64,000 nt of DNA, from assembly GCA_963779225.1 (NCBI GenBank), contig CAVZWW010000001.1:542921-606920 (forward strand), read 5' to 3'. A program made the translations under genes and the position numbers. Below the pieces are notes generated by a model. The model was given only the letters and a program-made list of their open reading frames with translations. It ran no database searches and was not told the origin of the DNA. This DNA comes from an uncultured Bacteroidota bacterium. Its GTDB lineage: Bacteria; Bacteroidota; Ignavibacteria; UBA10030; UBA6906. This document shows, piece by piece, positions 1,965-4,739 of this stretch. Numbering within the stretch: position 1 is the stretch's first letter; each line of letters starts with the position of its first letter.

Positions 1965-2116
1965 TCCACGGGGAGTCAGGAACACCGGAGGAACGCGGGC
2001 TGCCTTCCCTGCGTTCGAAAAGAGGGAAGATCATCAAGGAGCCGGGGTTCGTAGCCATGCTCATCGACATTGAAGGGAACAGGTTTGCGCGCCATTCCAT
2101 GGCATAAGGCGGATCA

Positions 2117-2536
2117 ATGAGCCCGGGGTATGAGATTCTCGAGCACCCGGCGGACGTCGGCATCGAGGCGCGGGGACCGTCCCTGGCGGATGCTTTTGCG
2201 CAAGCGGCAGAAGGGCTGATGTCCGTCATACTTGATCCCACCCATGTGGTTCTGCGGGAATCGCGAAGGATAACGCTCACTGCCTCCGACACAGACCAAT
2301 TGCTCGTACGCTGGCTCTCCGAGATACTGTATCTGTTCGATGGGTGTGGGTTCGCGGGCTCCCGGTTTGATATCGAGATCCCTTCTCCTGCATCGCTCAT
2401 CGCGACCGTGCACGGAGAGATATTCTCCCCGTTGCGCCACACCGTGCGCACGGATGTGAAGGCGGTGACATATCATCTGCTCCATATACAGCAAAGCCCG
2501 GATGAGTGTGTGGTGAGGGTCTATTTGGACATCTAG
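2117..2536 (+). CDS. Archease (RtcB activator/chaperone)
   Basis: 139 aa; the N-terminus YEILEHPADVGIEARGPSLADAFAQAAEGLMSVILD matches the archease family signature (…EHTADIGI…). It lies directly upstream of rtcB. Confidence 0.75.
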   Translation: MSPGYEILEHPADVGIEARGPSLADAFAQAAEGLMSVILDPTHVVLRESRRITLTASDTDQLLVRWLSEILYLFDGCGFAGSRFDIEIPSPASLIATVHGEIFSPLRHTVRTDVKAVTYHLLHIQQSPDECVVRVYLDI

Positions 2537-2586
2537 AGACCGTCGTGCCACCGTCAGCGCACCGACCCCGAAAAGCAAAACCCCAC

Positions 2587-2782
2587 CGAAACGAACATCC
2601 TTGGGATCAACACCTTCAGGACGAGTGTCCCGGGACGAATGCCTTAGGGGGGAACGCCGCTGAAATGACATGTCCGGGGCGAAGACCTCGAGGCAACCAC
2701 TCCGGGAGGAACACCCTCGGGACAAACGGTCCCGAGCCACACCCCCTCCGGACGAACGCCTTCGGTGCGAACACTCCCGAGG
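2587..2782. repeat. About 13 tandem degenerate copies of a 14-15-nt unit (consensus roughly cGAACayCCyyGGGa) in the archease-rtcB spacer
   Basis: Read directly: gaacatccttggga / caacaccttcagga / cgagtgtcccggga / cgaatgccttagggg / tgacatgtccgggg / cgaagacctcgagg / caaccactccgggag / gaacaccctcggga / caaacggtcccgag / gacgaacgccttcggtg / cgaacactcccgagg. Many units hold short palindromes (CCCGGG, CCTCGAGG, CTCCGGGAG) and GGA/GGGA motifs. The ORFs the track places here (2506-2799+, 2616-2822-) show the same periodicity at amino-acid level and are repeat artefacts. Confidence 0.5.
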
Positions 2783-2864
2783 CAGAGACTTGCGAGTGAT
2801 CTTCTGCCCGGCTATCTTGCACTAATGCACAGAAGAACTGTTTCTGTCAGATGAGAGGATCCCC

Positions 2865-4298
2865 ATGTCCGGCTCATTCCGTTCCGTAGACCCATACCGC
2901 CACATCCTCCCGATGACATACAAGTCGGGGATGCGAATTGAGGGTATGGTCTATGCGGATGCCGAGCTGTTGAGACAAATTGAATCGGACCTGACCTGCG
3001 AGCAAATAGCCAACGTTGCCACACTTCCCGGCATGGTCGGCCGCTCGCTGGCAATGCCGGATGCGCACCAGGGGTACGGGTTTTGCATCGGGGGAGTCGC
3101 GGCCGCCGATCTTCAGGACGGCGTAGTGTCCGCCGGGGGTGTGGGCTTTGATATTAACTGCGGTGTCCGCCTTCTTGCTGCTGATGCCGATCCTGGCGAC
3201 GTGCGAGGTAGACTGGAAGAGCTGCTGTCCAGGCTGTTCCGCGACATCCCCTGCGGCACGGGGAAAAAGGGAGTTCTGGACCTCGGAATCAGAGAGTTGG
3301 ACGGGGTACTGCGTGAGGGTGCCCGATGGGCGGTGTCCCGGACGTACGGGCGCGAAGAGGATCTGACACGTATTGAGGAATCCGGATGCTTGCCCGGCGC
3401 AGATCCCGATCTTGTCAGCGCCCGGGCAAAAGAGCGGGGACACACCCAACTGGGAACCCTGGGTTCGGGGAATCACTTCATTGAAATCCAGTATGTGGCG
3501 GAGATCTATGACGGTCCCGTTGCAGCCGCCTTCGGTATCCGCCGGGACCAGATTGTCGTGTTGATACATAGCGGATCGCGGGGGCTTGGCCACCAGGTCT
3601 GCACGGACTATCTGGATCTTATGCACGACGGAATGAAGCGTTACCGGATCTCGGTGCCGGACCGTCAGCTTGCATGCGTGCCCGTGGGATCGAAGGAAGG
3701 GCGACAGTATCTGGCGGCCATGGCGGGAGCGGCCAATTTCGCCTTCGCAAACCGTCAGATGATGACACACTGGATCCGGGAGGTGTTCCGGAAGGTGATT
3801 GGCGATGCCGGTCTCCGGGTGGTCTACGACGTCTGTCACAATATCGCGAAACAGGAGAGCCACCTGGTGGACAAATCCCGCAGATCCGTTCTTGTCCACC
3901 GGAAAGGGGCGACCCGTGCGTTTCCGAAAGGGCATATGGCGCTGCCCCCTGACCTCCGGGAGGTCGGCCAACCGGTGCTGATTCCGGGAAGCATGGGTAC
4001 CGCCTCATACATTCTGGTTGGAACCGAGAGAGCCATGGAGGAAACATTTGGCTCGGCATGCCATGGTGCCGGACGCGCAAAAAGCCGTACCCGTGCAAAA
4101 GCCGGGACGTCGGCGGAAGCGCTCTTCCACGACATGGCACGCCGTGGTGTTCTGGTCCGGGGCCAGAGCAAAGCGGGCCTCACGGAAGAACAACCCGATG
4201 CCTACAAAGACGTTCACCGTGTGGTTGATGTTGTGCATTCGGCGGGCATCGCGCGCAAAGTGGCAAAGCTTGTCCCCCTCGCAGTGATGAAAGGCTGA
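2865..4298 (+). CDS. rtcB: RNA-splicing ligase RtcB (3'-phosphate/5'-OH RNA ligase)
   Basis: 477 aa; RtcB hallmarks GSGNHFIEIQ, HSGSRGLGHQ, CHNIA, LIPGSMGTASYILVG, ACHGAGR (metal-binding His/Cys and the GMP-histidine region). RBS gagagga 8 nt upstream of ATG. Confidence 0.9.
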   Translation: MSGSFRSVDPYRHILPMTYKSGMRIEGMVYADAELLRQIESDLTCEQIANVATLPGMVGRSLAMPDAHQGYGFCIGGVAAADLQDGVVSAGGVGFDINCGVRLLAADADPGDVRGRLEELLSRLFRDIPCGTGKKGVLDLGIRELDGVLREGARWAVSRTYGREEDLTRIEESGCLPGADPDLVSARAKERGHTQLGTLGSGNHFIEIQYVAEIYDGPVAAAFGIRRDQIVVLIHSGSRGLGHQVCTDYLDLMHDGMKRYRISVPDRQLACVPVGSKEGRQYLAAMAGAANFAFANRQMMTHWIREVFRKVIGDAGLRVVYDVCHNIAKQESHLVDKSRRSVLVHRKGATRAFPKGHMALPPDLREVGQPVLIPGSMGTASYILVGTERAMEETFGSACHGAGRAKSRTRAKAGTSAEALFHDMARRGVLVRGQSKAGLTEEQPDAYKDVHRVVDVVHSAGIARKVAKLVPLAVMKG

Positions 4299-4301
4299 TA
4301 T

Positions 4302-4739
4302 ATGAAAGACACCGACCCGAGGATGCACTCGGCCGAACACATCCTCTCGGCAACACTTGTCGCAATGTTCGGTATGGGACGGCCGTTCACCACCCATCTG
4401 GAGAAGAAGAAATCGAAGGCCGACTACCATTTCGGCAGAACGCTGACACCGGGAGAAGCAGGAGAAGTGGAACGCTGCGTCAATGAAGTGATCGACAGGG
4501 ATCTTCCGGTCTCTGAAGAATTCCTGCCGGCTGAAGTCGCGTCTTCGATGTTTGACCTGTCCCGCCTGCCCGGGGAATCGGCCGCCAGCGTGCGGATCGT
4601 GAGAATCGGAACATATGACGCCTGTCCATGTGCGGGAGCACATGTCCGCTCGACGCGGGAGATAGGCCGGTTCCGGCTGATCTCCTGGTCGCATGAGGAA
4701 GGTGCACTGCGGCTCCGGTTCAAACTCGACCAGGGCTGA
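4302..4739 (+). CDS. AlaX-S-like tRNA editing domain protein (threonyl/alanyl-tRNA synthetase second additional domain)
   Basis: 145 aa, starts 3 nt after the rtcB stop. Carries the two Zn-binding motifs of the tRNA_SAD/AlaX editing fold: HSAEHIL (HxxxH) and CPCAGAHV (CxxxH). Confidence 0.55.
   Translation: MKDTDPRMHSAEHILSATLVAMFGMGRPFTTHLEKKKSKADYHFGRTLTPGEAGEVERCVNEVIDRDLPVSEEFLPAEVASSMFDLSRLPGESAASVRIVRIGTYDACPCAGAHVRSTREIGRFRLISWSHEEGALRLRFKLDQG

Follow-up and report, generated by a model that had tools for sequence, protein, structure and literature searches.

Bacterial intergenic VNTRs, or minisatellites, include the MIRU-VNTR loci of mycobacteria and the typing VNTRs of many pathogens. 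In such loci, as in the array described here, repeats lie head to tail in an intergenic spacer with a unit tens of bases long, the copy number varies among close relatives and from one near-identical strain to another, and loss of the whole array is tolerated. The repeat tracts of contingency loci, which mediate phase variation in Haemophilus and Neisseria, consist of near-identical units of 1 to 8 bp and alter either the spacing between the -35 and -10 hexamers or the reading frame. Reiterated GGA motifs with a spacing superficially like that in our array occur in the RNA CsrB, and Y-RNA-like genes occur at some rtcB loci of other bacteria. The copies of the STAR elements of Staphylococcus aureus are separated by spacers. 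STAR elements are interspersed, short, G+C-rich direct repeats of intergenic DNA, varying in number and sequence with strain and species (PMC3532100). Our array resembles them in consisting of short G+C-rich direct repeats, in lying only in intergenic DNA, and in varying between strains and species, whereas it differs from these elements, dispersed over many loci, in being a single-locus, strictly head-to-tail array with no second copy in 64 kb.

We analyzed a window, i.e., the whole stretch of DNA presented here, of 64,000 nucleotides. In this window, an archease gene (2117..2536, + strand; ORF with PF01951) is followed by rtcB (2865..4298, + strand; ORF with PF01139), and a 328-nt spacer separates the archease stop (2536), its upstream boundary, from the rtcB start (2865). 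Archease homologues with 73 to 88% identity occupy the same position in the related contigs L081 to L093, L103, and L104, and the best match of RtcB was an Ignavibacteriota MAG (74% identity), with MAGs of Acidobacteriota, Bacteroidota, and Chlorobiaceae ranking next. In Logan ERR12035938, an independent assembly with identical RtcB, the archease ends at 391 and rtcB starts at 720, again giving a gap of 328 nt; thus, the length of the array is not an artifact of one assembly.

The neighboring genes encode a 4Fe-4S protein, a methyltransferase, archease, RtcB, a tRNA_SAD protein, a DUF3108-like protein, and a cation efflux protein. The tRNA_SAD gene (AlaX-like, PF07973; 145 aa; 4302-4739) starts 3 nt past the rtcB stop and is conserved both in the close clade and in L001, an Ignavibacteriota MAG (67% identity); therefore, the local order is methyltransferase-archease-RtcB-tRNA_SAD. 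Besides, a gene remnant (1965-2107, in an ORF at 1961-2107, + strand) lies between the methyltransferase stop and archease, and its translation, ending in GKIIKEPGFVAMLIDIEGNRFARHSMA and a stop codon, matches the C terminus of a protein encoded upstream of archease in L104, which ends in ELGFVAIVRDSEGNRVALHSMA and a stop codon. This L104 protein is complete-looking, a different protein, and glyoxalase/VOC-like by eye; a Pfam search of the remnant (1961-2107) gave no match. In closer relatives, only the last few codons of the remnant (ALHSMA and the stop) are kept, fused to the methyltransferase end, and both L085 and L089 carry a 25-nt duplication at the site of these codons. A scan of the whole window for tRNA and tmRNA genes found none.

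A degenerate repeat array, comprising about 14 head-to-tail units of 12 to 17 nt each, occupies positions 2587-2798. Read by eye, the units lie at 2587-2591 (cgaaa), 2592-2607, 2608-2621, 2622-2635, 2636-2652, 2653-2667, 2668-2679, 2680-2693, 2694-2709, 2710-2722, 2723-2737, 2738-2752, 2753-2767, and 2768-2782. The regular part (2592..2782), delimited by unit boundaries, periodicity, and unit alignment, consists of 13 units of 12 to 17 nt with the rough consensus CGAACrCCyyyGGGr, and the mean pairwise identity between units in the array is about 61%. On the archease side, the array ends in an old stretch of more decayed, C-rich units (about 2541 to 2591; GC skew of -0.32 to -0.36), which aligns with the first ~110 nt of the L083, L089, L091, and L081 arrays.

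Tandem Repeats Finder (2000-3400, score of 30) did not report the array, because its units are too degenerate and too variable in length, and we therefore measured the periodicity by our own autocorrelation. The period is about 14.7 nt, with self-identity maxima at lags of 15, 29-30, 44-45, and 58-60, and the periodicity score of 0.215 compares with 0.017 ± 0.020 for 2000 dinucleotide shuffles (z = 9.9; top shuffle, 0.107). Every one of the best eleven 220-nt scanning windows in the 64 kb overlaps the array, which is thus the strongest such signal there. This bears out the sequence-only reading, in which about 13 degenerate tandem repeats of ~15 nt had been recognized between archease and rtcB. 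The arrays of relatives are periodic as well (z = 2.0 to 5.1), and all arrays are C-rich and T-poor (C, 34 to 38%; G, 20 to 28%; T, 7 to 14%, with 11% in the window's array).

The mini-palindromes that had been noted in the units are indeed present, including five CYCGRG sites inside the window's array versus ~0.35 expected. Restriction-site avoidance was considered as the meaning of these AvaI-type sites and rejected; CYCGRG occurs at about the expected frequency genome-wide (101 found versus 111 expected), and thus the sites are a mere property of the unit. A scan of viral contigs with a two-unit pattern gave nine single chance matches within high-GC coding DNA and zero arrays. In the decayed spacer upstream of archease, we also observed caGGAACACCGGAGGAACGCGGG (1977-1999), in which the motif GGAAC(A/G)C occurs twice at a distance of 11 nt; both motifs are similar to the array unit, e.g., GGAGGAACACC at 2705-2715, a similarity that may be due to chance.

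The array always terminates at a block composed of TTGCG (-35), N17, and TATCTT (-10). This block, GACTTGCGaGTGATCTnnnGCCCGgcTATCTTGCA, was found in every spacer, array-bearing or array-free, and TTGCG and AT.TTG were invariant with zero indels between them in ten sequences with 73 to 100% archease identity. The distance from TTGCGA to TATCTT was 17 nt in 10/10 sequences, and the intervening letters vary (GTGATCT... in the window, CTGTGTG... in L103, and GTTGGCT... in L093). Two conserved hexamers at a fixed spacing of 16 to 18 nt around a variable spacer characterize a sigma-70-type promoter, and this is the pattern at 2790..2818 (+ strand), which agrees with the E. coli consensus at 8/12 positions, the cutoff of the scan tool being 9. 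We infer from these conserved letters that TTGCGA (2790-2795) and TATCTT (2813-2818) constitute an rtcB promoter of the sigma-70 type, internal to the operon, from which transcription would start near 2825. Two other promoter types were rejected: a sigma-54 promoter (RtcR-type control), by eye, on account of the GG/GC spacing of the conserved block, which is incompatible with TGGCAC-N5-TTGC, and a Bacteroidota-type -33/-7 promoter, on account of TAtcTTGc, which only partially matches TAnnTTTG and fits less well than the sigma-70 type.

Two blocks at the promoter side of the array resemble its units. The last unit-like block, cagagaCTTGCGAGtg (= cagagacttgcgagtg; 2783..2798), resembles the unit consensus, includes the -35 hexamer, and is present in all relatives, including array-free ones. 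The promoter-proximal unit, CGAACACTCCCGAGG (2768..2782, approximately -58 to -44 from the putative start), is conserved across the clade and is kept as GAAC..CTCCyGAGG in the outgroups L093, L103, and L104 (73 to 75% archease identity), whereas in array-free relatives just the 3' half of this unit (TTCCCCGAGA) remains, immediately following the archease stop. The proximal unit is likely the seed of the array, judging from this distribution.

Downstream of the promoter, folding predicts a small hairpin, CAGAAgaactgTTTCTG (2830..2846, + strand), in the short rtcB leader; its support is weak, with zero compensatory changes among seven relatives and broken pairs in 2/7. A hairpin had been noted immediately after the array and before the rtcB RBS, and although such a hairpin is predicted, it does not follow immediately, as a conserved promoter-like block of 45 nt lies between. 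In relatives with 73 to 75% archease identity, the rtcB leader after the same promoter is ~110 to 120 nt long (L093, 1341-1449; L103, 745-860; L104, 1035-1150) versus ~40 nt in the window's clade. The leaders of L103 and L104 carry a GC-rich hairpin (GGCGCACCGaaagCCGGTGaCCGCC), and Rfam gave no match at an E value of ≤1 on the long leaders of L093, L103, and L104.

To compare the spacers of relatives, we used contigs from an archease protein search, which delimited a tight clade with 73 to 88% identity followed by a drop to 60%, and from a scan of metagenomes in which the conserved block that follows the array served as the query. The array is confined to the window's own clade (archease 73 to 100% identical), where the copy number ranges from 0 to ~14. 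The spacer is 91 to 94 nt without an array in L082, L084 to L088, and L092; 176 nt with 1 to 2 units and a long leader in L093; 188 nt with ~6 to 7 degenerate units in L081; and 205 nt with 3 units in L103. It is 212 nt in the P0005 contig (length only), 228 nt with an array in L089 and L090, 242 nt with one unit more than L089 in L091, and 328 nt with ~14 units in the window. L083 has an array of ~10 units in a spacer of at least 152 nt, the contig stopping at the end of the array, and L104 has eight very regular 16-nt units, GAACRRCTCCTGTGTT, on a contig that stops before rtcB. At least eight related contigs are array-free, and their promoter is kept only 20 nt past the archease stop.

A strain-level change is seen in the pair L089 and L091, which encode the same archease protein and differ at 3/888 flanking coding positions (99.5 to 100% identity). 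Their spacers are set apart by a single 16-nt unit, by two indels of 1 nt each, and by 4 substitutions (Fisher P = 0.035). Thus, the comparison of copy number between strains that had been proposed as a check revealed variation even between contigs with the same archease protein. The arrays of the window, L083, L089/L091, and L081 have an alignable archease-side part in common and differ by whole-unit blocks, and ~7 interior units were found in the window's array only. Identities between adjacent units indicate that the most regular units are those nearest the promoter. Furthermore, unit identity is 0.66 to 0.71 within the L103/L104 lineage versus 0.47 to 0.59 between lineages. Likeness of units within a lineage, whole-unit block differences, and regularity close to the promoter are characteristic of a minisatellite undergoing turnover. 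A neighbor-joining tree of the 420-nt archease gene mixed array-bearing and array-free lineages and was poorly resolved, and therefore, the gains and losses of the array are not countable.

Taken together, we consider it probable (roughly 70%) that the array is a noncoding DNA minisatellite (VNTR) that originated when an element preceding a promoter was duplicated in tandem and that lies, in a single uncultured lineage, just before a conserved rtcB promoter. A slippage-prone minisatellite was one of three options in the sequence-only reading, and it fits the range of 0 to ~14 copies and the one-unit difference between L089 and L091. In the simplest history, replication slippage or unequal recombination would presumably have generated head-to-tail duplicates of an element of ~15 bp just upstream of the -35 hexamer of the internal rtcB promoter, and the copies would then have diverged, with the greatest divergence on the archease side. 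Our comparisons demonstrate that the array is a DNA-level, noncoding, and hypervariable feature, with 0 to ~14 units in one genus- or family-level clade, and that it is dispensable for the archease-rtcB operon. The array may tune rtcB transcription, but any such effect is probably small and exerted in cis; it might come about through more or fewer copies of the promoter-upstream element or through a longer untranslated stretch separating archease from the promoter.

The array belongs with bacterial intergenic VNTRs, or minisatellites, since it shows all three of the defining features that we tested, i.e., head-to-tail units of ~10 to 100 bp beyond chance, a copy number that differs among strains or close relatives, and a noncoding location. 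It departs from the usual VNTRs in that its units are unusually short (~15 bp) and so degenerate that a standard finder misses them and in that it abuts, and is probably seeded from, the -35 region of a promoter. Furthermore, it was found in an uncultured lineage, the closest database relatives of which are Ignavibacteriota and Bacteroidota MAGs. With promoter contingency loci, it shares a mutable repeat tract beside a promoter and the gain and loss of units between strains; however, the array lies upstream of the -35 hexamer, its units are degenerate, and the spacing between the hexamers is fixed at 17 nt, so that repeat number alters neither core promoter geometry nor a reading frame. Switching of copy number would be slow, and any effect would be graded at most.

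If 15 nt is taken as five codons, the array might instead encode a low-complexity or pentapeptide-repeat protein or represent a recent pseudogene. The period is near five codons and open frames run across the array (2506-2799 and 2670-2825 on the + strand and 2616-2822 on the - strand), but these are open because T is nearly absent. Unit lengths of 12 to 17 nt break every reading frame, the indel between L089 and L091 (16 nt) is not a multiple of 3, and close relatives have no array. Besides, the three ORFs over the array matched no Pfam family at an E value of ≤1, in contrast to the frame-preserving 15-nt units and family profile match of pentapeptide-repeat proteins, and gene callers left the spacer empty on all contigs spanning it, the sole call in any spacer being a 32-aa ORF located where the L083 contig is cut off. 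The argument against coding that had been drawn from the nucleotide-level periodicity is thus borne out, and we regard the chance that the array is coding as practically negligible.

A second possibility is a role of the array at the RNA level, either as a GGA decoy of the CsrB/RsmZ type or as a Y-RNA-like partner of RtcB repair, in a transcript made together with archease and rtcB or from between the two genes. This was also among the options put forward from the letters, with folding, covariation, and an Rfam scan as checks. The ~15-nt spacing of GGA/GGGA in the window's own array is superficially CsrB-like, the Y-RNA-like genes of rtcB loci elsewhere offer a precedent, and the array has the same orientation as both genes with no terminator after archease, so that it is probably contained in archease-rtcB read-through RNA. 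However, the GGA motifs, although present as claimed, are not enriched (8 in 221 nt versus 5.8 expected from the window-wide frequency); their density in the arrays is 0 to 3.2 per 100 nt versus 2.6 window-wide, with zero in L081, and they are not conserved. Where present, GGA lies in the 3' arm of mini-palindromes rather than in a loop, and most of these palindromes (CCCGGG, CCTCGAGG, and CTCCGGGAG) have only 0 to 2 nt between their arms, which makes them unfit for RNA hairpins.

Folding was no better than in shuffles for the spacer (z = -0.5 on the + strand and -1.5 on the - strand), the array (z = -1.0), or the regular array of L104 (z = -0.02 and -0.25), and the leader hairpin, as noted above, lacks covariation. 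Rfam gave no match at the gathering score in the window, nothing relevant at an E value of ≤10 on 2400-3000, and none at an E value of ≤1 in five relatives; weak matches to sR36, mir-3547, and sR16 were far under the gathering scores. The sR36 match, to an archaeal C/D-box sRNA model, lies inside the rtcB coding region (2927-2996; 19 bits versus a gathering score of 55; E = 0.02) and was taken as chance. A scan for promoter- and terminator-like sites flanking the array, a weak test, found none. Thus, in contrast to the GGA-rich loops, own promoter and terminator, and family model of the CsrB/RsmZ sponge RNAs, the array shares with these only the superficial spacing of GGA units in the window. 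A Y RNA/YrlA would be expected to match Y-RNA-type models or to show a conserved stem plus a tRNA-like domain, but Rfam gave no match at an E value of ≤10 and the folding z-scores were not significant, and no Ro/Rsr (TROVE) gene was found among the genes neighboring the locus. Given that close relatives and all of the 80 other rtcB loci (see below) lack the array as well, nothing supports a structured or decoy RNA here, and we judge such a role to be extremely improbable.

A third alternative is that the array functions in cis. The proximal unit GAAC..CTCCyGAGG (approximately -44 to -58) would be a site for an activator or repressor of rtcB, its copies would serve as extra or decoy sites, and copy number would set rtcB expression in the manner of a contingency locus. 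The proximal unit is positioned where class I activators and UP elements exert their effect on sigma-70 promoters. Its conservation extends over the whole clade, in spite of near-saturation at four-fold sites. Many units contain short palindromes (CTC-N-GAG or CYCGRG), and arrays occur at the same spot in at least three diverged sublineages. Units in lineages down to 73% archease identity share GAAC..C(T)CC..G.G, whereas four-fold sites are only 52% identical there, and aligned array segments are 78 to 84% identical versus 63 to 81% at four-fold sites, an identity that gapped alignment of repeats inflates. The shared motif and the identity above four-fold sites could reflect selection on the motif rather than neutral drift, but the same picture would arise if turnover drew its copies from a constrained master unit next to the promoter.

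Several observations speak against such sites. The array-free contigs retain the promoter with only half of the proximal unit, and the palindromic cores differ between lineages (CGGGA or CGAGG in the window versus TGTGTT in L104). Elsewhere in the 64 kb, the unit motif occurs at chance frequency (8 found versus 9.3 expected), with a pattern that was one base longer than the window's proximal unit and missed it, which makes this a weak test. No regulator gene is evident among the neighboring genes, and a period of 14.7 bp places successive sites on opposite helix faces. Hence, of the array of regulator-binding sites proposed in the sequence-only reading, the position abutting a conserved promoter and the clade-wide conservation of the proximal unit stand, whereas no binding protein or regulon motif was found. 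We regard a function in cis as possible, if unlikely. Its stronger form, in which the array is a copy-number-tunable operator or activator stack grown from the element upstream of the rtcB -35 hexamer and strains thereby set different basal levels of the RNA-repair ligase, appears to us quite unlikely.

The array might also act as a transcriptional insulator, i.e., a long, untranslated, C-rich, and weakly structured stretch in which Rho would end archease transcripts, leaving rtcB to rely on its own promoter. The GC skew in the first 80 nt past the archease stop (about -0.36; C roughly twice G), the C-rich and T-poor composition of all arrays, their folding no better than shuffles, and a separate putative promoter after the array are compatible with this. 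However, in the regular part of the array the G content is near the C content, which is not rut-like, and array-free relatives keep the same promoter 20 nt past the archease stop. Insulation is therefore very improbable in our estimation.

Thus, a repeat by rtcB that looks like a decoy RNA or Y RNA is best read as a lineage-specific DNA minisatellite, which has value as a negative result. Two by-products of the analysis are a well-supported candidate for an internal rtcB promoter in a clade with Ignavibacteriota as its nearest relatives in the databases, in contrast to the archease-rtcB gaps of a few to ~75 nt elsewhere, and a clear example of a tandem array that seems to have grown out of a promoter-upstream element. 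If copy number tunes rtcB, the clade would offer a natural series of 0, 1 to 2, 3, 8, ~10, and ~14 units for studying upstream repeats. If the operator stack were real, the RNA-repair operon of an environmental bacterium would have a graded contingency locus. Besides, the locus might be usable as a strain marker in metagenomes.

Beyond the clade, we scanned GTDB for RtcB with one genome per species and obtained 80 loci, all with ≤74% RtcB identity. A periodic array adjoining rtcB was found in 0/80 of these loci of other species. Archease was present in the same fetched locus in 51/80, nearly always directly upstream, with its last aligned residue ~10 to 100 nt before the rtcB match, and in the sequences L001 to L009 the gap between archease and rtcB was a few to ~75 nt. 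With no array in the 80 loci and such short gaps, the long spacer is peculiar to the window's lineage. Homologous loci lacking a conserved spacer had been named beforehand as an observation that would speak against the proposal, and the short gaps of L001 to L009 count in this way against the RNA interpretation. Two unrelated tandem repeats were seen farther downstream of rtcB in this set. In Candidatus Desulfatibia vada (L075, 7837-7956), a 14-nt repeat, CAAGCATCAAGAAA, is present in 8.6 copies with 94% matches, 3.8 kb downstream of rtcB. A Dehalococcoidales MAG (L067, 6831-6987) carries, 2.8 kb downstream of rtcB, 10 copies of an indel-free 15-nt repeat, CCAGAGACTGCGCCT, which probably codes for a Pro/Glu/Thr/Ala-rich linker.
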